NCBI GenBank assembly: GCA_031972855.1
Contig: DALYDY010000001.1
Coordinates: 128,048 to 192,047, forward strand
DNA length: 64,000 nt
Direction: 5' to 3'
DNA from: Minisyncoccota bacterium
GTDB lineage: Bacteria; Patescibacteriota; Minisyncoccia; Phycocordibacterales; UBA9973
This document shows positions 35,617-49,122 of this stretch, in pieces. Made by a program: the position numbers and the translations under genes. Each line of letters starts with the position of its first letter. Position 1 is the first letter of the stretch. The notes beneath the pieces are model-generated. The model made no database searches. It was not told the origin of the DNA and saw nothing but the letters and a program-made list of their open reading frames with translations.

Positions 35617-35689
35617 GGGGATTATGGTGTAACGGTTAACACTGAGGTTTGTGGAACCTTCAATCTGGGTTCGATTCCCAGTAATCCCC
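35617..35689 (+). tRNA. tRNA-His (anticodon GTG) with encoded G(-1); no encoded CCA
   Basis: G(-1)-GGGATTA-TG-GTGT-AACGGTTA-ACAC-T-GAGGT-TTGTGGA-ACCTT-CAATC-TGGG-TTCGATT-CCCA-GTAATCCC-C. Confidence 0.85.
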
Positions 35690-37336
35690 CTTTTCAGGAG
35701 TTAATATAACGGAGTCAGGTAATTTGGTCTGGCGTATAGATACGTTCCGACCCCGACCCCTGACAGGACTTAATATAACTGAGTCATCCGTTGTAATAAT
35801 TCCTTTCTCAAAAGCTCGATCCTTTACCGGATCGGGCTTTTGCGTTGTGTTCCAAATAAGCGCGCCTGTTGCCTCAAGTCCTAACACGATTGGAGATTTA
35901 ATTGCCTCGACGATTAGCTTGTCCTCGGCTTTGAATTGGTCCCAGAAAAGCCCAAGGTACAGGCGTTTCAAATCGTCCGGTGCTTTCTGGTAGGTCTTGC
36001 CGATGTTCCGCATAAGGGCTAGTACGTCTTGGATTACATCAATCTTCAGGTTCTTTGTTTGGTCCAGTTTGTGCATTTCGTCCTCGACTCCATCAATCTG
36101 TTCTCGGTAGCGGACCTTTATTTTGGTGAACGCCGCATCGTCGATGATTCCGTTGATCAGCTTTTCTTCGGCGATCTCAAGTTTGCGCTCGAAGTTTATT
36201 TTTGATGTCATGAACTGTTTCTTTTGATTCCCGACATCGGATTTCTTTTCTTCGTAGATGTCCCGCATTTTCTTCACCACTTTATCTATGAAGTCGTCAG
36301 AGAATTGCAGTCCTTTGAATTTCTCTATGATCTGATTTTCTAAATCAAACACCTCGACGTATTTGTCGGTACATTTCTTTTGGTCATTGGACCGATTGCA
36401 GTGGTAGTACGCTTTCTTTTTCAAAGGGTGATATTCGGCCGTGTATCGTTGGCCGCACTTGTTACAAAATACAAATCCGCGCAGTAGAAAGTTATGCTTG
36501 TGCCGTCTGCATGCGTAGCGATTATTTTCCAGCATGACTCTCTGGCATTTATCAAAAAGCTCTTTGGTGATGATTGCCTCATGCTTGCCGATATCATTCA
36601 TCCCTCGCCACTCCATTCCGCCATAATAAAAAGGGCACTTGATTGTGCGAAACATTTTACTCATCGCCACTCGTTTACCCACGGTGCTGACCAGTCCTTT
36701 CTTGTAGAGCAGATCCCGAATCTCAATCAGGGAATAATCGCCGGTGCTATAGAGTTTGAATCCCTCGGCGATGAGTGGTGCGCGGATCGGGTCTGTCGTG
36801 ATGATTCTTTTCTTTTCGTCGTCGGGAGTTCCCGAGTTGAAGTATCCCATCGGTGCTTTCGTCGGCCACCATCCGTCCTTGTATTTTTGCTCCATGCTCT
36901 TGAGCGTCTTTCGGGAAGTGATCTGCGATTGCAGTTGGTTCACGCCGGCAATTATCAAGTCCATGAAGTTGCCCTCGGGCGTGTCCTCGAGTCCCGGTTG
37001 CGATACCGATATCAGTTCGACGTTGTGCTTTCGCAGGAGTGCCTTGATCGTAAGGTGGTCCCCGGCATTACGGGCGAGTCGGTCCGTATCTTGGACGAAG
37101 ATCGCGCCGATGCTCTTATCCTCTTGGATACGGATCAACATGTCTTGAAGTCCGGGGCGATTCATGTTGGTCGCGCTCTTGCCCGGGTCCTTGTAGACAC
37201 CGTCGTCGGCAAGCTTGAAGGTTTTCATATCTTCAATGCCGCGCTCGCAGAGGCGCAGTTGGGTTTTTAATGAGTGCCGTTCGTCACCGGCTTGTTCATC
37301 GGTGGAAACTCGGCAGTAAATGAGAGCTTTATTCAT
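35660..37336 (-). CDS. Large serine recombinase (resolvase/invertase catalytic domain + recombinase domain + zinc ribbon)
   Basis: N-terminal YCRVSTDEQ catalytic-Ser motif, resolvase-domain conserved Arg/Asp residues, central recombinase domain, C-terminal Cys cluster (CNKCGQ...HCNRS). Start taken at MNKALIYCRVS. The open frame continues antisense through the tRNA-His 3' end before the first stop. Confidence 0.8.
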   Translation of the reverse strand: MNKALIYCRVSTDEQAGDERHSLKTQLRLCERGIEDMKTFKLADDGVYKDPGKSATNMNRPGLQDMLIRIQEDKSIGAIFVQDTDRLARNAGDHLTIKALLRKHNVELISVSQPGLEDTPEGNFMDLIIAGVNQLQSQITSRKTLKSMEQKYKDGWWPTKAPMGYFNSGTPDDEKKRIITTDPIRAPLIAEGFKLYSTGDYSLIEIRDLLYKKGLVSTVGKRVAMSKMFRTIKCPFYYGGMEWRGMNDIGKHEAIITKELFDKCQRVMLENNRYACRRHKHNFLLRGFVFCNKCGQRYTAEYHPLKKKAYYHCNRSNDQKKCTDKYVEVFDLENQIIEKFKGLQFSDDFIDKVVKKMRDIYEEKKSDVGNQKKQFMTSKINFERKLEIAEEKLINGIIDDAAFTKIKVRYREQIDGVEDEMHKLDQTKNLKIDVIQDVLALMRNIGKTYQKAPDDLKRLYLGLFWDQFKAEDKLIVEAIKSPIVLGLEATGALIWNTTQKPDPVKDRAFEKGIITTDDSVILSPVRGRGRNVSIRQTKLPDSVILTPEKGDYWESNPD

Positions 37337-37509
37337 GGTAATTGTAATAGTTAGCTGATAAGGGCAATGCGACGACATTATGCTAGGAACACGGGATATA
37401 GCAATGGTGGGTTTTGTTTTTGTGTCGTATATGTGGTCATTTTTATCGTTTTTCACTACTGGCTTAACTGACGTTATTTTGAAATGGTCCTTATTTCATG
37501 GGCTATTAA

Positions 37510-37869
37510 CTACAGAAATCCGTCATGTCTGTTCCGAGGGTCGATCCAGTCGCCCGGGTACTCTCTGATGATTTCATTGAGTTTCTGTCGCAACTGCGCC
37601 ATTTCAACAGAAAACTGTTCAAGCCGTTCTTTCCATCGGTCAAACTGCGGTCGCTTTTCACGGAGTACTGTCTGTTCTTTCGTAAGGCGTTCGAATGCTT
37701 TCCACATCAGCTTTGTTGCATATGCTCGGTTGAGGTTGTATCCCTTTTCTTTGAGGTAATAGCAAAGCGCACGAGCGCTCATGCTCGTATCTTTGGATAC
37801 GATGTCATAGATGATATCGATATGGTGGTTTGTTTGTTCTGATGAGTATTTCATGGATTGTGAAAACAA
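37510..37869 (-). CDS. Hypothetical small HTH/coiled-coil protein (possible transposase-OrfA-like or recombination accessory factor)
   Basis: 119 aa, GC-rich codon usage like the island; basic helical N-terminus. Weak similarity only. Confidence 0.3.
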   Translation of the reverse strand: MFSQSMKYSSEQTNHHIDIIYDIVSKDTSMSARALCYYLKEKGYNLNRAYATKLMWKAFERLTKEQTVLREKRPQFDRWKERLEQFSVEMAQLRQKLNEIIREYPGDWIDPRNRHDGFL

Positions 37870-38030
37870 AATTCATTCTGGCTTATTCGCTGTTTGGTGG
37901 CTTGTGATGGATTGTCATTCGGTGTTTTCTTAGGGTTTTCAGTATTTTTTGGCACGCGCGTTAGGTTTCTTTTTTTATTTCCTTTATTTTCTTTCTTACC
38001 CCCTCGAAAGTGTTCGGTATGCTGAACACC

Positions 38031-38504
38031 TTATAGCGGTTTAACCCTGAATTTATCAGTAAGATTCTTGATTCCGTCTTGTAAATTTGAACGGTCTTGC
38101 TGTTCATTCTGTCGAATGTTCTGTTCTGTAGGTTGAATCCCTTGTTCGATACACCGAAATCCCTGTTCAGCTTGCCGAACCGAGGCTTGATAAATCCAGA
38201 AGTAATTCACACCTGTTTTATTTTTCGGGAGCTTAATAAGGAACCCTTTCTCGGCGAGTGACTTTCTGGTTTCACTGATCTTGCCACGGGACCAGTTTGG
38301 CAAGCAGTGATCTTTGATGTCTTGAAGTGATAAGTCCTCGATGATACCAAACCGCTCCTCGTCGCGTTTATCCCATCGTGCATGGGTCACATACATGTCG
38401 AAAAGCCGATACTCCTGATCGGTCATCACTTTTTTGTATTCGATAGCCATATATCTATATAGCTTTAGGTAGCCTACGTGTTTTTTCTTCATGTTCATTT
38501 TCAT
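38031..38504 (-). CDS. Hypothetical protein (157 aa)
   Basis: ORF with island-like composition. Confidence 0.35.
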   Translation of the reverse strand: MKMNMKKKHVGYLKLYRYMAIEYKKVMTDQEYRLFDMYVTHARWDKRDEERFGIIEDLSLQDIKDHCLPNWSRGKISETRKSLAEKGFLIKLPKNKTGVNYFWIYQASVRQAEQGFRCIEQGIQPTEQNIRQNEQQDRSNLQDGIKNLTDKFRVKPL

Positions 38505-38618
38505 GCTCGATTTGCATCAAGAGGATTTGGGCGAGACGTTCGACAAAGAAATCCAAGTCTTTTGGATTCAAGGGGACCTGTACAGGGACCGGTTTGTTGT
38601 CGAGCGTCTGGTCCATAA

Positions 38619-38876
38619 TTAATTTACCTCGTAGAGGCGGGTCTTTAACGCTTTGATCTGGTCAAAGTAAGCGCGCGGTTCGACCGACAGCTGACGCTTT
38701 TGGAATTCTGAAACAATGTCTTCAAGTTCCGGAGTCCGGGCGAATATGAATTGCGCTCGCCTCGGTACACTCTTGTCGACATCTTCGAGTGGCACGAACA
38801 GCGAAATTGCCGCCGCGCACGCGAGGTCTGAAGTTTGGTACATAGATTTTTGATTAATAATAATTTTCATAGTCAT
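38619..38876 (-). CDS. Hypothetical protein (85 aa)
   Basis: ORF only. Confidence 0.3.
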   Translation of the reverse strand: MTMKIIINQKSMYQTSDLACAAAISLFVPLEDVDKSVPRRAQFIFARTPELEDIVSEFQKRQLSVEPRAYFDQIKALKTRLYEVN

Positions 38877-39354
38877 TTTTCAAAGAGCTAGCTGAAAACA
38901 AAAAAGAGGACTTGCAACGCAAATCCAATATTGATGGATATGCATCACAAGTCCTCCGGGGTATTCGGCCAGACTTCGAACATTAGTTGTGAAAAGACTA
39001 CTCTCAAATCGTAGCGCGGACCGCTAATGAAGCGCAACTCCTGACAGTGTGGACAAAGTAGTATGCCTAGTGAACCACTTAAAGATTTTATCTTTACGTC
39101 ATAACAACTTTTTGGAATCGAATTGGCCGTATGAGGAGAGCAATAGAACACTTGTTTTTAAAAAGGCAAACAGTGGAGAGATTCCCTGTAGGCTTAGTCT
39201 GGTATCTATAACACCGTGGGGATAACCGATAAAGGTTGTAGATATGCGACAAGTAAAATCTAAAATAACCCTTATTTAAAAGGGCTATTTTTGGAATAGG
39301 GGTCTCTTGTAAATAACTATTTGCAAGTAAAGGCACTTTCTTGTATACTTATGT

Positions 39355-40821
39355 TTGCAAGTGAAAAAGCCTATGAAAACAGAGCAAAAACAAAAAATCT
39401 TTGAATTTATACAGGACCAGATCGCAAATGCTGACTTTAGAATCAAGGCATACGTATTTGATGAGTCCGGGAAGAAGCGTCTCGGGCGTAACTGCTTTGT
39501 GAAGCTTGATATGCATGTACAGAACTTCCTACAAGGAAAATCTCCTATTCGATGGATAACCATGTATGGCTTACGTGGTGCCGGCAAAACTACCTTACTT
39601 GCTCAGTTGTATGAGCAGACGAAAATTGAGAGCAAAAGAAAATTATTTTTATCAGTGGATCAGGCGGTTGGAATTTTTGGAGTTAGTCTCAAAGATATTC
39701 TTGATGTCTACGAAGAATCGCTTGGTACATCCTTCGAACGTCTCACGGAACCAGTCTTCCTTTTTCTTGATGAGGTTCAATACGATGAGAAGTGGGCTCT
39801 ATTACTCAAAACGATTTATGATCGCAGTAGCAAGGTTTTTATTATTGCGACAGGTTCGTCTGCGCTTTCGCTACAAGCGAGTCCTGATGTTGCACGACGC
39901 GCAATTTTTGAAAAACTTTTCCCGATGAGCTTCACGGAATATATAAAGATTAAAAATCAAAAGACAGAAATTCGGGGACTTGCCAAGGAACTACGCGAGG
40001 CGATTTTTAATTCCAAAGATGCTAAAGAGGTTCACACACGTCTTAAGGGTTTGGAAGTAAAAGCTCGGCAGTATTGGTTAGATATAGAACGGAAAGAGAT
40101 TGATTCATATATGCAATATGGGACACTGCCTTTTATGATCGCTCTGAATAATGAGGCAATGGTCTACGATCAAATCAAGAAGACCCTTGAGCGTGTTATC
40201 AGTATTGATATTCCACATATAAATCAATTTTCAGCAGAGACTATATCCAAGATACCAATGGTGCTTTATGCACTTGCAGAAACGGACCAGTTGAGCTTGA
40301 GCAGTCTCGCTGATAAAGGCGAGCTTGATATTAGCCGTCCAGTGCTTACAGCCGTTCTCGAAACTCTGGAAAGAACAGAAACGATTTGGCGTATTTACCC
40401 TCATGGGTCGCATGTAACACAAACAACTCGTCAGCCATCAAAATATCTTTTTACGAGCCCAGCGTTTCGGTCCATGTATTTTAATTTTATAGGAAACACA
40501 AGGACCCACGATACCTATAAAGGGAAAATACTTGAAGATACTGTCGGTCTTTATCTTAATCGCATATTCTCGGGCAAGCCCGACACTTCCGTAACGTACG
40601 ACAGTGCCGCCGGCGGAGCTGATTTCATTATTCGTCAAAGTAAAGACATGATTGTATTGGAAGTCGGGTACGGCGATAAATCGTTTAGGCAAGTTGTAAC
40701 TACAATGGCAAAGGTCGGAGTAAATGCTCGATACGGCATAGTTGTGTCGCAAAGTCCGCTTGCCTTAGATGAAGAGAAAAATGCAGTAAGTATCCCACTC
40801 TCTTATTTTTTGTTGATGTAA
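39355..40821 (+). CDS. AAA+ superfamily ATPase (COG1373/DUF4143-type)
   Basis: Walker A GLRGAGKTTLLAQL, Walker B FLDEVQY, C-terminal DUF4143-like region; 488 aa. Confidence 0.65.
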   Translation: MQVKKPMKTEQKQKIFEFIQDQIANADFRIKAYVFDESGKKRLGRNCFVKLDMHVQNFLQGKSPIRWITMYGLRGAGKTTLLAQLYEQTKIESKRKLFLSVDQAVGIFGVSLKDILDVYEESLGTSFERLTEPVFLFLDEVQYDEKWALLLKTIYDRSSKVFIIATGSSALSLQASPDVARRAIFEKLFPMSFTEYIKIKNQKTEIRGLAKELREAIFNSKDAKEVHTRLKGLEVKARQYWLDIERKEIDSYMQYGTLPFMIALNNEAMVYDQIKKTLERVISIDIPHINQFSAETISKIPMVLYALAETDQLSLSSLADKGELDISRPVLTAVLETLERTETIWRIYPHGSHVTQTTRQPSKYLFTSPAFRSMYFNFIGNTRTHDTYKGKILEDTVGLYLNRIFSGKPDTSVTYDSAAGGADFIIRQSKDMIVLEVGYGDKSFRQVVTTMAKVGVNARYGIVVSQSPLALDEEKNAVSIPLSYFLLM

Positions 40822-40845
40822 AGATCCAGAATAATTAAAATTACT

Positions 40846-41034
40846 ATGAAAATCGACAACCAAGAAAACAAAAAAGAACTCTACATCAAATGCGTAAAAT
40901 GCGGTGATGAGATTTTTTGGAATACGCACAAACAACTAACTTACTGCACATGTAAGGCTATTTATGTTGATGGCTGCGAGGGTTATATCCGGGTCGGCGG
41001 AAATAAAGAGGATCACGTTGAGATTCAAAAATAG
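40846..41034 (+). CDS. Small zinc-ribbon protein
   Basis: CVKCGDE...CTCKAIYVDGCEG Cys pattern; 62 aa. Confidence 0.4.
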   Translation: MKIDNQENKKELYIKCVKCGDEIFWNTHKQLTYCTCKAIYVDGCEGYIRVGGNKEDHVEIQK

Positions 41035-41039
41035 ATCAC

Positions 41040-41372
41040 ATGAATAATCAAAAGATAGAAATTATAAGACAACCAGTATTTAAACCTTTTGAAAGTAGAA
41101 TGGTTCTTTGCGCTGATCCTGTTATCAAAATAAGCGATAAAGAAAAAATAGCCCGCTTTGCTATTTCTATGGTTGATACATCTGTTTTACAGTTGGGAGA
41201 TAATTTTGAAAAATTAAACAAAATGATTAGAGATACTCTCCAGGACGGTGTTCAAGAAAATTTTGAAATAGATGGTGTTTACTACTTTGAATACACAGGT
41301 AGTCATTTCCAACAATTAGATGGGAAACCAGATTGGGCTAATGATTTCTATAGACAAGGTATAAATATTTAA
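41040..41372 (+). CDS. Hypothetical protein (110 aa)
   Basis: ORF only; 6-bp intergenic gaps on both sides (operonic). Confidence 0.35.
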   Translation: MNNQKIEIIRQPVFKPFESRMVLCADPVIKISDKEKIARFAISMVDTSVLQLGDNFEKLNKMIRDTLQDGVQENFEIDGVYYFEYTGSHFQQLDGKPDWANDFYRQGINI

Positions 41373-41377
41373 AATTT

Positions 41378-42847
41378 ATGGGATGGATAATTTTCATTGG
41401 AATAGTTATTTACTTCATTTACAGCTCTTCAAAAAGCACAGGTACTTCAGCGTCTCCATCTAAGCCTCACTACTCGAAGCCTTATAGCAAGCCCGCAGTT
41501 GTTGTAAATAAAAAACTAAATGAGGATCAGTTACTTGTTGAAAAAATAACGCTTAGCGAAGAGCAGCAGACCCTGTTCGATAAAATCGAACATAGCACCG
41601 ATCACTTCTTCATTACAGGTAAGGCGGGGACCGGTAAGTCAGTGTTGTTGCAGTATTTGAAATTCAAATCAAAGAAACGCTTGGTTGTTGGTGCTTTTAC
41701 CGGAGTCGCTGCACTGAACGTAGGAGGCCAGACCTTGAATTCGTTATTCGAATTGCCGACGGGTTTCATAGATTTAAGTCGCTTAACAGTAAGCGGTCGA
41801 GTTTCCACTTTGATGAGGCACGTTGATACTGTCGTCATCGATGAGATATCTATGGTCCGGGCTGATATGATGGGTGCCATTGATGTAATTCTTCGACAGG
41901 CGCGCAAGAATGACGTTCCATTCGGCGGAGTTCAAATGGTCATGTTTGGGGACCTTTACCAATTACCTCCCGTTGTGGCCGACGAAGCACTGCATCAGTA
42001 TTTTGCCCATAATCATGGTGGTCCTTATTTTTTTAATGCTGATGTCTGGCAGAGAGCAACACTTCACACTTTCGAACTGAGTCATATTTTCCGTCAGCAG
42101 GATGATGAGGAATTCAAAGCTATTCTTAATTCAGTACGAAAAAATCAAATAGAAGATACTGTCCTTTCATCCTTGAATCAACGGCACGTTGACCAGGTAC
42201 CCACTGACGGAGTCGTTACGCTTGCAACTCGCAACGCTGTGGTTGATCGAATAAACAATGATCGCCTGGCTCGACTTGGCGGTGAGTTGTATGAATATCG
42301 CGCAGATGTTTCTGGGAATTTAGAACGATCTGCGTTTCCAGCTGAAGAATTCTTACGACTCAAAAAGGGTGCTCAGGTGATGCTCCTCAAAAATGATCCA
42401 GAGAAGCGATGGGTAAATGGTACGGTCGGTGTGGTTGAGTCGTTGTCATCGTCTGAAATAAAGGTCCGCATTAATGGCGAAATTATTTATTCGATCCCGC
42501 GAGCAACCTGGACCAAAATTCGCTATTTCTACGATACTGAAACAAGAAAAATCGAAGAGGAAGTTTTGAGCTCATTTACTCAATTCCCACTTCGCTTGGC
42601 ATGGGCGTTCACGATTCACAAATCCCAAGGTAAAACATACAATGCTGTCGTCGTAAATATGGAGGGAGGTGCTTTTGCTCACGGACAAACGTATGTTGCG
42701 CTCAGTCGTTGCACTTCTCTTAACGGACTATATCTGACCCAGCCTATCGAAAGAGATGATATAAAAGTTGATCCGGTCGTAGTCAGCTTTATGGAACAAA
42801 TTACATTAGAGACTATTAATCCTGATGTACAAACACAAATTATATGA
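41378..42847 (+). CDS. PIF1/RecD-family (SF1B) DNA helicase
   Basis: Walker A GKAGTGKSVLL, VVIDEISMV (Walker B), GDLYQLPPV (Pif1 motif III), C-terminal SF1 helicase motifs (AFTIHKSQG...YVALSR); N-terminal TM segment. Confidence 0.8.
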   Translation: MGWIIFIGIVIYFIYSSSKSTGTSASPSKPHYSKPYSKPAVVVNKKLNEDQLLVEKITLSEEQQTLFDKIEHSTDHFFITGKAGTGKSVLLQYLKFKSKKRLVVGAFTGVAALNVGGQTLNSLFELPTGFIDLSRLTVSGRVSTLMRHVDTVVIDEISMVRADMMGAIDVILRQARKNDVPFGGVQMVMFGDLYQLPPVVADEALHQYFAHNHGGPYFFNADVWQRATLHTFELSHIFRQQDDEEFKAILNSVRKNQIEDTVLSSLNQRHVDQVPTDGVVTLATRNAVVDRINNDRLARLGGELYEYRADVSGNLERSAFPAEEFLRLKKGAQVMLLKNDPEKRWVNGTVGVVESLSSSEIKVRINGEIIYSIPRATWTKIRYFYDTETRKIEEEVLSSFTQFPLRLAWAFTIHKSQGKTYNAVVVNMEGGAFAHGQTYVALSRCTSLNGLYLTQPIERDDIKVDPVVVSFMEQITLETINPDVQTQII

Positions 42848-44226
42848 AAAATAACATCTACCCAATTATCGGCATGAGTCCAGGCAATAGCTACTTCAAG
42901 GATGAAGAGATTAAATATCTTCTCAAGACCGCAGTAGACCGCTATGGAAAGGTTGCTGTGATGATTGCTGACATCCCTGCAATCTCGACATATGTCGCAC
43001 TCGGCTATCCTGAAAATCGTGCGCGGCGCGATAAGGCCCTGCCACAAGGAAATCTTTTGAAAAATAGAACTGAGCGGGCCGTCGTCCAACTCGGATACAC
43101 AAAGGATCAGGTAAGGATTATTGATTGGGAAAATGAAATAGAACCGAATGAAAATTACAAAAAGTCGTATAAGTATATTCGGCATCTTTATGAATCAAAC
43201 AAGCAATTTGAACATGATGCCGATGAGACAACTAAGGGTGTCGTCACTGGTTCAAAGAAAGAAATTAAAGATATAGATGTTGCGGTAAAAACTGCGGTCC
43301 ACTACTTGCTTTCAGAATTTGCTTTTCTTGATTTTGCACCCGGATTTTTAGGAGCTGAAAAAATCACCTATATTTATCACAAAAATTGGCCTGTGTATGA
43401 AAACTATATTGCAGGAAAGTATGACGGGAAATCAAAAGACCATGTCGATTTCCTACTCATGGAAAATCCATGGGAGACGTATCGTTCAGTGTGGGGTGAT
43501 GAGGATAATGAGAATGGAAGTTATACATCCGCCCTTGATCGTGTAGAAAAGACAAAGACGCTCCGTGTAGCTTTCACAAACTATCCACCCGCGTTATTTT
43601 ATAATCACGAAACCGATACTTTCTCGGGTATTTTCTATGAGATTATTACTGCAATAGCAGAAAAGCATGGTTGGCAGATTAAGTGGAGCGAAGAGACAGG
43701 ATATGGTGTTGTAATTGATGGATTGGACCATAATCGCTTTGATCTGTTTGGGAGCACTGTTTGGCCGACACCTGAGCGAAAAGAGAAAGCGTCTTTTTCA
43801 AAATCTATGTATACAAGCGAGGCATATCCATGGACGTTTCCAGGATTTGAGTATGAAAAGCTTAAAGATAGTCCTGATCTAAGGGTTGTGGTGAAAGAAA
43901 ACGATATCTCTCATTCGATTGCAATGGCTGATTTTCCAAAAGCACGACTGGTATTTGTACCGCAGCTTTCGGACCCTCAAGAATTGCTGCAATTTGTAGC
44001 TGACGGAAAAGGGGACGTGACGTTTGCAGAAATTAACCTTGTGGAAATTTTTATAAAAGCGAAACAAAAGAAATTGGTACAGGCAACAAGTAGTCCTATT
44101 CGCGTATATGAAAATACTTTTGTTTTCAAAAAAGACGATCCCTCATTAAAAAATCTTATTGATGAAGAAATCGTAGCCATGGTTGCTAGTGGTAAAATGG
44201 AAAAGTTGATAGAAAAATATCTTTAA
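42844..44226 (+). CDS. Two-domain protein: N-terminal cyclodipeptide synthase (CDPS, tRNA-dependent)-like domain fused to C-terminal family-3 solute-binding-protein (SBP_bac_3)-like domain
   Basis: N-terminal ~235 aa align motif-by-motif with YvmC/AlbC-type CDPSs: IIGMSPGNSYFKDEEI vs VGISPFNSRFSEDYI, VAVMIADIPAISTYVALG vs VSVLLAGHEAANLLEALG, AVHYLLSEFAFLDFAPGFLGAEKITYIYH vs [29 protein letters not shown] (catalytic Tyr/Glu positions conserved). C-terminal ~225 aa match amino-acid-binding SBP family 3: LRVAFTNYPPALFY...GIFYEIITAIAEKHGWQIKW...RFDLFGSTVWPTPERKEKASFSKSMY. ATGA start/stop overlap with the helicase gene. Confidence 0.65.
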   Translation: MKNNIYPIIGMSPGNSYFKDEEIKYLLKTAVDRYGKVAVMIADIPAISTYVALGYPENRARRDKALPQGNLLKNRTERAVVQLGYTKDQVRIIDWENEIEPNENYKKSYKYIRHLYESNKQFEHDADETTKGVVTGSKKEIKDIDVAVKTAVHYLLSEFAFLDFAPGFLGAEKITYIYHKNWPVYENYIAGKYDGKSKDHVDFLLMENPWETYRSVWGDEDNENGSYTSALDRVEKTKTLRVAFTNYPPALFYNHETDTFSGIFYEIITAIAEKHGWQIKWSEETGYGVVIDGLDHNRFDLFGSTVWPTPERKEKASFSKSMYTSEAYPWTFPGFEYEKLKDSPDLRVVVKENDISHSIAMADFPKARLVFVPQLSDPQELLQFVADGKGDVTFAEINLVEIFIKAKQKKLVQATSSPIRVYENTFVFKKDDPSLKNLIDEEIVAMVASGKMEKLIEKYL

Positions 44227-44240
44227 CACATAATTAATTC

Positions 44241-44768
44241 ATGACACTACTTATTTTCCAAATTCTCTCAAGCGTTTTTGGTTTTGCAAACAAACTCTTG
44301 CTGTATCTTGGGAAACGAACGGGTTGGATTTTGGGATTTCTGGCGGGAGTATTTTTTGTCGTTTATTTTTTCCTAATCGGATTTACTGTATATGCATTCG
44401 TACAAATAGGATTTAGTCTTTTGATGCTGTATGGATATTTTTCTCATACAGGAATCTCTAAAAATGCAAGAATTTTTGCCACCGTAATTTTATCTTTAAT
44501 CGCTATTATTATTTGCTTTATAACGTTTAACGGCAAACTGACTTTACTTGAAGCAACTTCAGCTTTATTGGCCTCATGGGGCACATACTATCTTGCATCA
44601 AAGAATAATATAAAAGGGTGGGGCATGTACCTTATTGCTCATTTTATCCTTATTTATCTAACCATCATAAAACAACAATATATTTTTGCCTTGTTTCAAG
44701 GGTTGTCAGCAGTCGTTTCGATCTTAGGAATTATTAGATCAGGAGATACTAAAACGAAGGGTTTCTAA
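44241..44768 (+). CDS. Small multi-TM membrane protein (possible PnuC-like transporter; uncertain)
   Basis: 175 aa, 5-6 TM helices, directly downstream of the CDPS-SBP fusion gene. Confidence 0.3.
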   Translation: MTLLIFQILSSVFGFANKLLLYLGKRTGWILGFLAGVFFVVYFFLIGFTVYAFVQIGFSLLMLYGYFSHTGISKNARIFATVILSLIAIIICFITFNGKLTLLEATSALLASWGTYYLASKNNIKGWGMYLIAHFILIYLTIIKQQYIFALFQGLSAVVSILGIIRSGDTKTKGF

Positions 44769-44785
44769 AAGTTTAACTATTAAAA

Positions 44786-44821
44786 AAACCTCATGTTGAA
44801 TTTATACAACATGAGGTTTAA
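44786..44821. terminator. Bidirectional hairpin terminator
   Basis: aaacctcatgttg-aatttataca-acatgaggttt. Confidence 0.7.
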
Positions 44822-44850
44822 CTTTTGATGAAGAGGATTAAACTGTCATC

Positions 44851-45423
44851 TCAGTTCATTTGAGCTTTAATACCGAAAACTTCGCCACCATACGCAAACA
44901 CCTGTTCATCTAACACCTTGATCAAGCTGGAAAGTACTTTGTCTTTCTTTTTTGAATGGGCAAAGATGATGTTTTCAACCGAGATGACAATCTCACCTTT
45001 TTTGAGCTTATTGACACTTTTTTCAAAACTGCCATCGCTATAAGGTATAGATTGGGTAATGATAGTATCAGCGGTTGCTTGTTCAATTTTAATTACGCAA
45101 CTGCCACTCATTCCACTCATCCTGCCTTCAATGCTGTAACGGGCATTTACTATGCGGTTGCCTACACTATCTCTTTGATATGCATCAGGGTCTTTCCATT
45201 CAATGTTGGTTCCAACTGTAGGGAAGTATTTTTTCGCAGTATCGACCATTAAGGCAAACACTGAATCCAATACTTCATTTTTAACAATTTTTGCTTCCAC
45301 CTTTGGAACCTCCTTTGCTACGGGGACCGGAGCGAGAGTGTCATTTCTACTTTCTGGCTCATTAGAGCAAGATGTCATACATAAAGCGATAAACGCAATA
45401 GAAAGATTAAGTAACTTTTTCAT
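44851..45423 (-). CDS. Lipoprotein (hypothetical)
   Basis: Signal peptide with lipobox LCMTSC. Confidence 0.5.
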   Translation of the reverse strand: MKKLLNLSIAFIALCMTSCSNEPESRNDTLAPVPVAKEVPKVEAKIVKNEVLDSVFALMVDTAKKYFPTVGTNIEWKDPDAYQRDSVGNRIVNARYSIEGRMSGMSGSCVIKIEQATADTIITQSIPYSDGSFEKSVNKLKKGEIVISVENIIFAHSKKKDKVLSSLIKVLDEQVFAYGGEVFGIKAQMN

Positions 45424-45533
45424 TTGTTATTTGGTTTTGATTGTTTGAAAAGAACGAATTTCACTGTCAACCCACAACGTTTTGTTATGAACTGAATAAT
45501 GAAGGGAGCTACTTTATTCACTCCCTTTGAGGT

Positions 45534-45944
45534 TTAACCTCCATATGAATTTGAAGAAAGTACCGTCAGGTCTTTATCTCCACCACTCAATTCCCAATCT
45601 CTATCCATTCTCCAACAGGATAATGTTACTTCATCCAAACGATGGATTTGAAGTAACTTGATAGCAGGAAAGTGAATCGCAATGTGAGAAAACCTTGATA
45701 CTTCTGCAAGCTCTATTGTTACACCCAGCGTATCAGCATTCTTTTCGATTTTGGTAATCCCTTTATACCAATCCCATACATAGACAACAGGAATGAAATC
45801 AGGGTCACTGGTTTCTACTGTCATATCCATATCGAGATTGAGCTGATTGATGTCAGTAGGGTTGATGTTATATTTTCTAACACCCAAATTTCTACCTAAT
45901 CGTGTAAGTGTTGCTACACCAAGATGGTTCAATGAAGTTTTCAT
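45534..45944 (-). CDS. Hypothetical protein (136 aa)
   Basis: ORF only. Confidence 0.35.
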   Translation of the reverse strand: MKTSLNHLGVATLTRLGRNLGVRKYNINPTDINQLNLDMDMTVETSDPDFIPVVYVWDWYKGITKIEKNADTLGVTIELAEVSRFSHIAIHFPAIKLLQIHRLDEVTLSCWRMDRDWELSGGDKDLTVLSSNSYGG

Positions 45945-46083
45945 TTTTGAAAGAATTTTACCGCAACGTGCGATGCCGAGATGATTTTTTAGCGTTGTGC
46001 CATTCTGTGAGTTTGTCCATTCTCACTATATCTGCCAATTAAGGAAGCAGAGGAACCTATGCCTGTAGTATAGCACATATACA

Positions 46084-46112
46084 TTGACAAGTCAAGCACA
46101 ATATGCTATGAT
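46084..46112 (+). promoter_or_regulatory. Consensus sigma70-type promoter upstream of the DGR target gene
   Basis: ttgaca-17 nt-tatgat, ~75 nt upstream of the start codon. Confidence 0.5.
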
Positions 46113-46189
46113 TTAACCAGAATACAGTAAACCTCTCGCCGTCTTCGGTATAACGAGTAGAGGCTTCGTTCATTTAAATCTTAATTGTC

Positions 46190-46828
46190 ATGGCAAAATT
46201 TAATGTCACAGGCGACCAACACTTCGGCACCACAGGACAGGTGCTCGAAATTCAACGCCAAATCCGTCTTAAGGGCGGAAGTCCAATCGATCCCGAGCTC
46301 GTTGCTCTTGCACTTCAGGACATCATCGAAGGTAAGTTCAACCGCAGTAAGAAAGAGAATGCAATTCTCAAACTACTGTCGAAAGGCGAATCCATCATCA
46401 TTGATGCATGTGATGGGACCGAAACATTGGCAACTGCCAAAGAAACATTCAAATCTGGTATAGATGGAGACTTCAAGAACTGGGGTACCAACAAGCCGGG
46501 CGTTTCTACTGAAGACACCGCAGTACAGGTTCACGAAATGGTGAAGGACGCTACCTTTGCACAAATGTTCGGCTCCCTCGGGACCGATCTGGACAAGCTG
46601 TGTCTGACACAAGCCCAGATAAAGAACTTTTGCAAAAAGCATCCCAACTGGTTACGCAAAGACGGATATGCGACTTTCTTCCTGTTCAAGGTTGAAGATC
46701 AATTCTTCGTTGCTTTCGTGTACGTGTACTCTGACGGCTTGAACGTCTTCGTGTTCCGGTTCGGGTACGACTTCGTTTGGTTTGCCGAGTGCTCCCTTCG
46801 TCTGGTGGTTCCGCAACTGACCGCTTAG
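46190..46828 (+). CDS. DGR target (variable) protein; C-terminal variable region encoded by the VR
   Basis: The last ~40 codons coincide with the VR (46700-46820). The VR differs from the TR only at TR adenines, mostly in AAC codons. Confidence 0.8.
46700..46820 (+). repeat. DGR variable repeat (VR), 121 bp
   Basis: 121-bp alignment with the TR at 47131-47251: 19 mismatches, all at positions where the TR has A (AA->TT x5, AA->TG, A->T x5, A->G, A->C x2). Confidence 0.9.
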
Positions 46829-47130
46829 TACCTTGTTCTAATGACGCTTATTTTCTTAATCCCTTTGATTCTTCGGAATTGAAGGGATTTTTTTATTTTT
46901 GTATAATGATCGGGCAGTGGTGCAATATGTCGCGGTTACGGCTGCGGGATCACGATTGCTCAAAATCATCATCGAGAATTTTGCCGGCTACGGCTTTCAA
47001 AAGAGTGAAGATTTTTTTGAAATAAAAAAACTTTTCAGTTGGTGCGGTGTGCTTGCGGACTTCTAGGTCCCGAATAAAATACAGCACGGTCCCTGATGGA
47101 AACATGCTTGGATCGGCGGTGGTATAGACG

Positions 47131-47251
47131 GCACAGCGCACAATTCTTCGTTGCTAACGTGAACGTGAACTCTGACGGCTTGAACGTCAACGTGAACCGG
47201 TTCGAGAACGACAACGTTTGGAATGCCGAGAACTCCCATCGTCTGGTGGTT
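47131..47251 (+). repeat. DGR template repeat (TR), 121 bp
   Basis: Non-coding copy of the VR containing AAC-rich sequence (aacgtgaacgtgaac...); sits between the target gene and the RT. Confidence 0.9.
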
Positions 47252-47281
47252 CCGAAAATGATAGTTTTCTCCTCTCTGATT

Positions 47282-47626
47282 TTATTGTCCGAGAGGAGTT
47301 TTCTTTTCAAGCCCCTTTCTCCAACCGCCGAGCATTTTGCCTATCTCATCCAACTGTTCGGAGAGTATTGCATATTTGTCGTTCGGCAGGCATTTGTTCT
47401 CCCACGCCAACTGCAAAAAGAATTTCACCCCGTCGAGCTTTGATATTGAAATGGTGATACGGTTGATCTTCTGATCTCCCGACAGATAGAAGGAAACAAA
47501 AATGTTTTCCAACAGTTCTAAAAAATAGCAGTCTATCTTGCCACCGAGATTGTGGCGGTAGGTCTTGGGAAAATCGGCCAGTAACTTAAACCAGAGTGAG
47601 TACGATGCTTTTGCCTTTATGAGCAC
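47282..47626 (-). CDS. Accessory variability determinant (Avd)-like four-helix-bundle protein, encoded antisense to the TR and RT
   Basis: 114 aa; LWFKLLADFPKTYRHNLGGKIDCYFLELLENI... and C-terminal EIGKMLGGWRKGLEKK resemble the Avd family (compare the bAvd C-terminus VGRILGSWIARVNRKG). Confidence 0.6.
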   Translation of the reverse strand: MLIKAKASYSLWFKLLADFPKTYRHNLGGKIDCYFLELLENIFVSFYLSGDQKINRITISISKLDGVKFFLQLAWENKCLPNDKYAILSEQLDEIGKMLGGWRKGLEKKTPLGQ

Positions 47627-47680
47627 TGAAGGTGCTCGGGGGGGGTAGATTAATTGACATAGTAATTTTAATTAATATTT

Positions 47681-48697
47681 ATGAAAAAATTCGGTCGCTC
47701 TTACCAGAATATCATAACAGTCGAAAATTTGCTCCGCGCGTGGCAGGAATTTTTGTCTGGGAAAAAGAACCGCATCGATGTCGCCGCGTTCCAGAATCGG
47801 CTCATGAATAATATCTGCGATCTGCATCAGGAGCTTGCCGACAAGACCTACCGGCATGGTGCGTATCACGCATTCAACATTTCCGATCCGAAGCCGAGGA
47901 ACATTCACAAGGCTACGGTCCGGGACCGTCTGTTGCACCACTTACTTCACGCCGAAATGTATCCGCACTTCGATAAGAAATTCATTCACGACTCGTATTC
48001 CTGTCGCATCGGCAAAGGTACGCACAAAGCGATGGACCGCTTTCAGGATTTTGGCCGTATCGTTTCCAAAAACGACACTCGCGTATGTTGGGTTCTGAAA
48101 TGCGACATCAGAAAATTCTTTGCAAACATAGACCACGTGATTTTGAAAGATATCATTGCACGGCACATTGAAGATCGCGACTTGTTGGACTTGCTCGGGC
48201 ATATCATCGATAGTTTTTCGACACAGGGCAGGACGGATGTCGGTCTGCCACTCGGCAATCTCACCAGTCAGCTCTTGGTCAATGTCTACATGAACGAGTT
48301 CGATCATTTCATGAAGCGGACGCTCAAAGTTACCCATTACATTCGCTACGCTGATGACTTTGCCATTCTCTCCGAGGATCGGGACTATCTGGCGGACCTT
48401 ATTCCACAAATAGCCGAGTTTCTGGGGGATAGGCTGAAATTGTCCTTGCATCCCGACAAAGTGTTTGTGAAGACGCTTGGCTCGGGCGTTGATTTCTTGG
48501 GGTGGGTTCATTTCCCGCACCATCGGGTTTTGCGTACGGCCACGAAACGGCGGATGTTTGCCAATCCGGGCATTTACGCGGCCGACGAAGCGGTGGTGAA
48601 CTCATATCGCGGGTTGGTTTCTCATGGCAACGGGTGGAAGTTGGTTCGCACGATCGAGGCGGTTTCGGCGAAGGTGTCGTCGTCCGAAATCGGCTGA
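47681..48697 (+). CDS. DGR-type reverse transcriptase
   Basis: RT motifs including YADD (IRYADDFAILS) and the DGR-typical LPLGNLTSQ motif (SQ rather than the group II SP); 338 aa; immediately downstream of TR/avd. Confidence 0.85.
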   Translation: MKKFGRSYQNIITVENLLRAWQEFLSGKKNRIDVAAFQNRLMNNICDLHQELADKTYRHGAYHAFNISDPKPRNIHKATVRDRLLHHLLHAEMYPHFDKKFIHDSYSCRIGKGTHKAMDRFQDFGRIVSKNDTRVCWVLKCDIRKFFANIDHVILKDIIARHIEDRDLLDLLGHIIDSFSTQGRTDVGLPLGNLTSQLLVNVYMNEFDHFMKRTLKVTHYIRYADDFAILSEDRDYLADLIPQIAEFLGDRLKLSLHPDKVFVKTLGSGVDFLGWVHFPHHRVLRTATKRRMFANPGIYAADEAVVNSYRGLVSHGNGWKLVRTIEAVSAKVSSSEIG

Positions 48698-48888
48698 ACG
48701 TGGCCGTTGAAATTCTGGAGGGTGACAAACCCTCGGATGCCGTTTGAAGAGCTCACACAGGGCAAAATACGCGCGAATTATGCCAACTGTAATTCTTTCT
48801 TCTTGTCGGAAATCAGCCTTAGTTTCTCTCGTAAAATTTGCATATACCCCTCGTCGAGAAGTATAGTTAGAAGGTCATTCTGACTCTG

Positions 48889-48932
48889 CCCCAAAAGAGA
48901 AAAAGCCCATAAGGGCTTTTTCTCTTTTGGGG
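48889..48932. terminator. Long perfect palindrome (hairpin terminator) at the right end of the GC-rich island
   Basis: ccccaaaagagaaaaagccc-ataa-gggctttttctcttttgggg. Confidence 0.6.
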
Positions 48933-48974
48933 GATTAAGCAAGTGAACTACTTCACTTGCGTCTGGGAATCGAA
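48929..48974 (-). repeat. tRNA-His 3'-end-like fragment (inverted relative to tRNA-His) interrupted by a 25-nt hairpin insertion
   Basis: Plus strand gggggatta + agcaagtgaactacttcacttgcgt + ctgggaatcgaa. The flanks equal the reverse complement of tRNA-His 3' end GGGGGATTACTGGGAATCGAA (21/21). The insertion is a homologue of the 25-nt insertion at 25169-25193. Confidence 0.7.
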
Positions 48975-49122
48975 AAGCTTTTGCTTATTTATGAAAATCT
49001 TTGATTTGAATAAATGCAAAAGGTGTACTGCTCCTGTAAGGAGAGATTCCTATTAATCTAAAAATTATTTATATTGACTTATAAAAAAATAAATAGTATA
49101 TTACGATAAATAATTTTAATTT

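Follow-up and report, generated by a model that had tools for sequence, protein, structure and literature searches.

The window analysed here is a 64,000-nucleotide stretch of a Minisyncoccota genome (assembly GCA_031972855.1, contig DALYDY010000001.1, positions 128,048 to 192,047). At 42844..44226 on the + strand it carries a gene for a 460-residue protein (plus stop codon), in which an N-terminal tRNA-dependent cyclodipeptide synthase (CDPS) is joined to a C-terminal solute-binding protein (SBP) domain that is predicted to be cytoplasmic. CDPSs are usually regarded as enzymes that stand alone at the entry to diketopiperazine pathways, and we know of nothing that has been established on the control of their draw on charged tRNAs. 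The reading that we favour, with somewhat less than even confidence, is that the SBP domain would bind a free amino acid, or a compound closely derived from one, and by its closure would gate a synthase releasing an untailored diketopiperazine. The protein belongs to a CDPS variant that was flagged earlier and is unstudied, and the window copy is one more member of that family, carried as cargo of an island.

Domain architecture and predicted structure

The fusion gene was delimited by its open reading frame (ORF), Pfam and NCBIfam matches and an AlphaFold2 model. PF16715 (CDPS) matches residues 8-193 with E=2.2e-28 and 99.9 bits (cut-off 27), while PF00497 (SBP_bac_3) matches residues 241-460 with E=1.7e-19 and 70.3 bits (cut-off 26.4). 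The NCBIfam model TIGR04539 (tRNA_cyclodipep) gives 120.4 bits against a cut-off of 45. A preliminary description of the window had proposed both domains, and these profile matches bear it out. Its division of the protein in two also stands, but the synthase ends near residue 212 and not near 235. The CDPS domain comprises residues 1-212 (42844 to 43479, + strand), and residues 213-235 (43480..43548, +) form an inter-domain linker with pLDDT of 76-87, directly after the motif E207-N-P-x-E-T212, which is invariant across the fusion family. From the secondary structure of the model, the SBP_bac_3 domain comprises residues 236-460 (43549..44223, +).

The AlphaFold2 model, built from 87 homologues, has a mean pLDDT of 92.2 and a pTM of 0.84. 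Its CDPS half shows the class-Ic aminoacyl-tRNA synthetase-like Rossmann fold of solved CDPSs, and its SBP half has the bilobal type II periplasmic-binding-protein fold, with Foldseek TM scores of 0.79-0.86 to 9e2b, AncCDT-1 and PaCDT. No solved chain found by Foldseek spans both halves. The high pTM suggests that the predicted arrangement of the two domains is a fixed one.

The catalytic residues of the synthase are found in the motifs G10-M-S12-P-G-N15-S and H153-Y154-L-L-S-E158. In a phmmer alignment with AlbC (3oqv), residues S37, N40, Y128, Y178, E182, Y202 and H203 of AlbC pair with S12, N15, Y105, Y154, E158, Y178 and H179, respectively. Asn40, Tyr202 and His203 of AlbC, which define the NYH subfamily, thus have their counterparts in N15, Y178 and H179. 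Because the AlbC catalytic positions pair off in this way, the protein can be assigned to the NYH-type CDPSs with a full catalytic set (S12, Y105, Y154, E158 and Y178, with the signature residues N15 and H179), and its intact residues predict a catalytically competent enzyme. The motifs and AlbC equivalents that had been pointed out beforehand are therefore all in place. A candidate tRNA-binding basic patch, with 7 K/R residues within positions 57-82 by sequence count, several of them conserved, lies on a long helix. As had also been noted earlier, a Kyte-Doolittle scan finds neither an N-terminal hydrophobic signal nor a transmembrane segment (highest 19-residue mean 1.55).

Conservation of the synthase pockets and the binding cleft

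Conservation was counted across 113 homologues, and each catalytic or NYH position is kept in 111-113 of them. Pocket P1 (AlbC positions 33, 35, 65, 67, 119, 185, 186 and 200) reads IGMAWFLY in the window protein and follows the consensus [IV]G[LMF][AP]WF[LM]Y throughout the family, in fused and stand-alone forms alike. Pocket P2 reads TGVGKWP, and four of its seven positions vary across the family. A prediction of the product from the two pockets was dropped, since no characterised CDPS in the readable part of the tables of Gondry et al. 2018 has the same signature.

In the C-terminal domain, a signature of 21 positions (R241 F244 E283 E284 Y287 R298 D300 S304 x W307 P308 R312 S325 R347 E352 D354 Q374 D391 T393 E396 N424) is nearly unchanged even among proteins that are 43-49% identical overall. 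The candidate cleft residues are F244, E283, E284, Y287, S304, W307, R312, E352, D354, Q374, D391, E396 and N424, and their conservation reads as a binding signature. R312 and E396, which are invariant or nearly so in the fusion family, align with the Arg and Asp that bind the amino-acid backbone in AncCDT-1 and AncCDT-3. We take them to be the equivalents of R77 and D161 of HisJ, that is, the Arg for the alpha-carboxylate and the acid for the alpha-ammonium group in amino-acid binders of the HisJ/LAO type.

Such a cleft would not be expected if the SBP domain had no ligand and served solely as a structural, solubility or oligomerisation scaffold, since its canonical positions, R312 and E396 among them, hardly vary between proteins that are ~43-91% identical. 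Stand-alone CDPSs of the same clade appear to function without an SBP domain, and some apparent secondary losses are nested among the fused proteins in a rough neighbour-joining (NJ) tree, both of which would suit a dispensable scaffold. We regard this role as improbable.

The cleft also bears on the proposal that the ligand of the SBP domain is the cyclodipeptide made by the enzyme itself, bound for feedback inhibition or for hand-off to a membrane exporter. A transporter gene adjoins the fusion gene in several loci (PnuC-like in the window, EamA in L007, MFS near P0090), and the predicted fixed arrangement of the domains is in keeping with such a role. However, these transporters are of different families and are absent at most loci. 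Diketopiperazines have no free alpha-amino or alpha-carboxylate group, yet R312 and E396 are invariant, and pocket P2 of the synthase varies while the SBP cleft does not. Product binding is in our judgement distinctly unlikely.

Origin of the C-terminal domain

An exhaustive HMMER search with residues 226-460 (threshold E<=1e-3) found only 1415 relatives of the C-terminal domain. After the fusion family itself, the next relatives are proteins of ~280-295 residues with 30-37% identity and signal-peptide or lipoprotein N-termini. These stand-alone SBPs (P0136-P0170) largely retain the cleft signature of the fusion family. They are unnamed or labelled 'amino acid ABC transporter substrate-binding protein', and none reaches an NCBIfam equivalog, the best matches being EhuB or LAO, far under cut-off.

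Metagenomes were scanned for these relatives with a single protein, P0143, as the query. On the contigs obtained, the stand-alone SBPs adjoin a BPD_transp_1 permease, an ABC_tran ATPase and paralogous SBPs. Three contigs (L078, L079 and L094) hold 2-4 paralogous SBP_bac_3 genes with a single permease and ATPase per operon, which by gene content would be multi-receptor importers of the polar-amino-acid type sharing the cleft signature of the fusion. Because stand-alone relatives with export signals and permease/ATPase neighbours largely keep the same cleft signature, the C-terminal domain is derived from the binding protein of an importer, which shed its export signal and became part of a cytoplasmic enzyme. 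The usual location of SBPs is given as extracytosolic (PMC8050422). The fusion would be one of the rare examples of an SBP_bac_3 domain at work in the cytoplasm.

The same relatives help to weigh the view that the SBP-fold domain is catalytic or binds an acceptor, so that the final product is other than a plain diketopiperazine. It could act as a tailoring enzyme like cyclohexadienyl dehydratase (CDT), an SBP turned enzyme, or the amine of a bound free amino acid could intercept the aminoacyl- or dipeptidyl-Ser12 intermediate. In its favour, the more than 20 invariant polar residues would also fit a catalytic site, and this is also a point against the gating that we prefer. Against it, the invariant signature is common to ABC-importer SBPs, which are binders and not enzymes, the cyclisation residues Y178, H179 and N15 are kept, and the same pockets are seen in stand-alone forms. 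We consider the catalytic or acceptor-binding view unlikely. CDT-like catalysis as such finds no support, as the position of the general acid Glu173 of CDT aligns with E401, which is conserved in less than 50% of the family.

Proposed mechanism and its significance

In the gating mechanism that we prefer, the CDPS half would take two aminoacyl-tRNAs. The first aminoacyl group would be held in the hydrophobic, strongly conserved P1 pocket and loaded on Ser12, and the diketopiperazine would then be released, with no enzyme nearby to tailor it. The SBP half, a cytoplasmic Venus-flytrap domain whose ancestor was the substrate-binding protein in an ABC importer of the polar-amino-acid type, would bind a free amino acid, or a compound closely derived from one, through R312, E396 and the near-invariant polar and aromatic cleft. 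Closure of the cleft would gate the synthase allosterically. Such gating would couple the diversion of charged tRNA to the availability of a metabolite, which would be sensible for amino-acid-auxotrophic episymbionts.

Besides the number of invariant polar residues, two points weigh against this mechanism. The precedents for SBP-enzyme fusions are all extracytoplasmic, and the pockets give no prediction of the product, as the family belongs to the sheet 'NYH CDPSs' of Gondry et al. 2018, which is an unassigned one.

A bolder proposal, which we put forward as possible and doubtful, is that the fusion is the first tRNA-dependent peptide synthase that is gated by a ligand or presents an acceptor, a CDPS controlled or fed by an importer-derived cytoplasmic sensor. 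Ultra-small episymbionts (bacteria of the candidate phyla radiation (CPR) and archaea of the DPANN group) and predatory or host-dependent bacteria would then send out a diketopiperazine signal solely in the presence of a specific metabolite from the host, and the module would spread by horizontal gene transfer as a single self-contained gene. The preliminary description had suggested a signal-producing rather than a classical biosynthetic role, and the absence of tailoring genes is compatible with it.

A strictly conserved cytoplasmic SBP on a CDPS, with no tailoring genes and in hosts of minimal metabolism, would offer a simple system for the control of a tRNA-dependent enzyme by a small molecule. 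The fusion family could also reveal a role for cyclodipeptides in the interactions of CPR and DPANN organisms with their hosts. The invariant binding domain and the episymbiotic distribution together pose a clear and cheap experimental question.

Distribution and evolution of the fusion

The search covered 5.8 billion proteins and returned 249 matches, of which the best 120 clusters were checked for domains. Both Pfam domains are present in 117 of these 120, with lengths of 433-500 residues, and the remaining three are short fragments. The named clusters come from Nomura-, Parcu-, Uhr- and Kerfeldbacteria and other Patescibacteria and are called tRNA-dependent cyclodipeptide synthase, the name that both NCBI and JGI annotation give to the family. 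A scan of species-representative genomes found 66 loci, with the full fusion in ~42. Most are from CPR bacteria of many lineages, and the labels of the other metagenome-assembled genomes (MAGs) with the fusion are Obscuribacterales/Melainabacteria, Bdellovibrionota, Alpha-, Gamma- and 'delta'-proteobacteria, Bryobacterales and a Woesearchaeota (DPANN) archaeon. The architecture had been described as one not seen before, but with at least 117 clusters and ~42 full-length loci this does not hold. An assembly or frameshift artefact was rejected as the origin of the fusion, since over 100 independent assemblies show the same architecture and ENPxET linker motif.

Stand-alone CDPSs of the same clade, 204-238 residues long, occupy ~20 of the 66 loci (CPR, DPANN and other archaea), and no C-domain-like ORF that would make a split version was found within 6 kb of them. 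In the rough NJ tree, built without support values, archaeal and CPR stand-alone forms are basal, the fused forms make up the crown and a few stand-alone forms are nested among them. This topology suggests that the fusion arose once, with later losses and transfer between phyla. At four loci (L049-L052, from Peribacteria, a Gammaproteobacteria MAG, Absconditabacterales and one further bacterium) the fusion gene appears broken into several ORFs under translation table 11. Absconditabacterales use an alternative code in which UGA encodes Gly. The split ORFs of that lineage fit this code, and the other split loci may be frameshifts or pseudogenes.

Two members had been listed before. Supplementary file 7 of Gondry et al. 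2018 (PMC5816076) gives Ca. Kerfeldbacteria OGY85379.1 and Ca. Moranbacteria OGI43181.1 in its sheet 'NYH CDPSs', where they are entries without expression or analysis. OGY85379.1 is our hit P0091, a protein of 479 residues with both Pfam domains and 56% identity to the window protein. The pocket signatures of the two match that of the window protein, and are VGLAWFLY/TAVGKWT for OGY85379.1 and IGFAWFLY/TGVGKWE for OGI43181.1, compared with IGMAWFLY/TGVGKWP here, and the window copy differs from both in its location on a mobile island. No paper was found that characterises the fusion or joins a cyclodipeptide synthase with solute binding, and the fusion accessions were likewise unmatched in the literature.

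Gene neighbourhood

Neighbours within +-3 positions were clustered for 43 non-redundant fused loci. No neighbour family occurs in more than 3 of the 43, and neither Pif1, PnuC, cyclodipeptide oxidase (CDO), P450, methyltransferase nor ABC components recur. Within the window, no CDO, P450, methyltransferase or prenyltransferase gene of the kind found in classical CDPS clusters lies beside the fusion gene. In eight other genomes the fusion gene lies amid housekeeping genes. The occasional transporter neighbours are those of differing families named above. The linkage to Pif1 and to the PnuC-like gene is incidental and particular to the window, so that the mobile-element setting emphasised in the preliminary description is not typical of the family.

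At a few fused loci tRNA genes of differing identity lie directly upstream. Located ~10-80 bp upstream of the fusion gene are tRNA-Ser(GGA) in L021 (5290-5377) and tRNA-Arg and tRNA-Gly in L025 (2127-2320), which is in line with repeated insertion at integration hot spots linked to tRNA genes. That the gene is functionally linked to tRNA-His was rejected, as this tRNA adjoins the gene only in L002 and L007/L022, with other tRNAs or none upstream elsewhere.

The acquired island and horizontal transfer

The window copy lies in an acquired island of ~13.3 kb (35691..49000, no strand assigned), delimited by its GC profile and its GC content at third codon positions (GC3), with an approximate right border at the GC drop. 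GC is 40-55% across ~35.7-49.0 kb compared with 27-31% in the flanks, and GC3 is 0.31-0.64 within the island compared with 0.12-0.25 outside. The left border is a tRNA-His(GTG) gene (35618..35690, +; ARAGORN and Rfam). It is abutted by a large serine recombinase (integrase; 35660..37456, -) of 598 residues with a GTG start, which overlaps the tRNA 3' end on the opposite strand and carries Resolvase, Recombinase and Zn_ribbon_recom domains (phrog_95 integrase, E=1e-80). A recombinase beside a tRNA gene and a foreign composition, as expected of an integrative island, are thus both present. Just downstream of the tRNA there is an imperfect direct repeat of 30 nt (35688-35717 and 35757-35786), whose two copies could represent recombinase binding sites. 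A second copy of the tRNA-His 3' end, as an att direct repeat, was not found in the window. Serine recombinases use very short cores, and its absence is not decisive.

The fusion gene follows a PIF1/Dda-like SF1B helicase gene (41378..42847, +; PF05970 E=4e-32, phrog_325 E=8e-75), whose TGA stop overlaps the fusion ATG as ATGA. It is followed by a gene for a PnuC-like small membrane protein of 175 residues (44241..44768, +; PF04973 PnuC/NMN_transporter, 32.5 bits against a cut-off of 27.3) with four hydrophobic peaks. The coupling, the downstream membrane protein and the GC-rich foreign island are as described beforehand. A bidirectional terminator-like hairpin with a 13-bp stem (44786..44819, no strand assigned) closes the + strand gene run 39355-44768. 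Upstream of the helicase, 39355-41372 (+) encodes an AAA_14/DUF4143 ATPase (488 residues, TTG start, weak matches to the PADLOC candidate PDC-S01 with E=3e-27), a 62-residue DUF7695 zinc-ribbon-like protein and a 110-residue ORF with GC3 of 0.21 and no family match. Between the PnuC-like gene and the retroelement described next, 44851-45944 (-) encodes a 190-residue protein with a lipoprotein-like N-terminus (…ALCMTSCS…) and a 136-residue protein, both without family matches.

The right part of the island holds a complete diversity-generating retroelement (DGR; 46190..48697, no overall strand). It consists of a 212-residue target ORF without Pfam match (46190-46828) with the variable repeat (VR, 46700-46820) at its 3' end, a template repeat (TR, 47141-47261), bAvd (47282-47626, -) and a reverse transcriptase (RT, 47681-48697, +). 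All 19 VR/TR mismatches fall at A in the TR, and 15 of them read T in the VR.

Identity to the copy in Ca. Nomurabacteria CP064958 is 91.5% for the fusion protein (84% in nucleotides), compared with only 39-70% for the flanking proteins, and the GC3 of the fusion gene is 0.356 compared with 0.37 for that orthologue. Because of this difference in identity and of the foreign GC3, the gene is taken to have been acquired here horizontally, and recently, from a ~41%-GC Nomurabacteria-like donor. The order tRNA-Arg, tRNA-Val, RluD-like, L19, tRNA-Leu, VKOR, Cob_adeno_trans, tRNA-His is shared with CP064958 upstream. In CP064958.1 (L002, 9714-9950) the fusion gene comes directly after tRNA-His, and the 3' end of the tRNA (aatcccgataggcaccca) is repeated ~160 bp downstream, ~50 bp before the gene start. 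This looks like an att-like scar, which would mean that in the relative as well the site has carried an integrative element. Homology with CP064958 begins a few codons into the ORF; therefore the Pif1 junction is local to the element of the window. On the simplest reading, the fusion gene would have been picked up in a donor, where it neighboured tRNA-His, by an element that targets this tRNA and then brought it to the window genome. The setting adds evidence of horizontal movement and has no bearing on function.

A tRNA-consuming effector had also been suggested, by which the protein would deplete charged tRNAs as an effector of the mobile element, a toxin or an anti-phage device. The gene does lie on an integrative island beside a helicase, the ATPase with weak PDC-S01 matches and a DGR. 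Against this, the fusion protein matches 0 families of the PADLOC defence models, no copies occur in 50,697 phage records, and plasmid matches are canonical stand-alone CDPSs only, at <=32% identity. Its surroundings in other genomes are mostly chromosomal and housekeeping, with no conserved partner or immunity-like gene, and CDPSs deacylate tRNA without destroying it. The suggestion is left unsupported, and we consider it highly improbable.

Comparison with known systems

Among SBPs, the polar-amino-acid ABC-importer proteins (LAO/HisJ, GlnH, EhuB and AncCDT-1) and P0136-P0170 share with the fusion the fold, lobes, hinge, Arg/acid pair and cleft signature. The SBP half differs from them in having no signal peptide or lipobox, in being cytoplasmic, in having no adjacent permease or ATPase (neither in the window nor recurrently in the 43 loci) and in its covalent attachment to an enzyme. 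The enzymes with SBP_bac_3-like modules, namely MltF, the periplasmic-binding-protein domain of RmcA (7ejg), a GGDEF protein (5gzs) and the Venus-flytrap domains of BvgS/EvgS, are all extracytoplasmic sensors, none of them on a tRNA-dependent enzyme. Cyclohexadienyl dehydratase (PaCDT/PheC) is periplasmic, and the fusion family does not conserve the position of its general acid Glu173.

Among CDPSs, the stand-alone NYH enzymes with structures, YvmC (3oqh), BtCDPS (6ztu/7azu), AlbC (3oqv) and Rv2275 (2x9q), share ~20-27% identity with the fusion over aligned regions. The fusion differs from them in an N-terminus ~20 residues shorter, the Pfam model being entered at position 21, in the extra C-terminal SBP domain of ~225-250 residues and in the lack of CDO, P450 or other tailoring neighbours. 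ParcuCDPS of Parcubacteria bacterium RAAC4_OD1_1 (ETB63777.1), which makes cHP/cHE, is the only biochemically characterised CPR CDPS found in the literature. Compared by description only, it is of the XYP subfamily whereas the fusion is NYH, and no extra domain is described for it. A parallel in architecture is given by the CDPS-tailoring fusions of Gondry et al. 2018 (such as CDPS 71 and CDPS-P450), which likewise have an N-terminal CDPS and a second, C-terminal domain, and the isolated CDPS half of CDPS 71 is active (PMC5816076). In those proteins the partner is a tailoring enzyme, whereas in the window fusion it is a binding-protein fold and no recognised tailoring enzyme.

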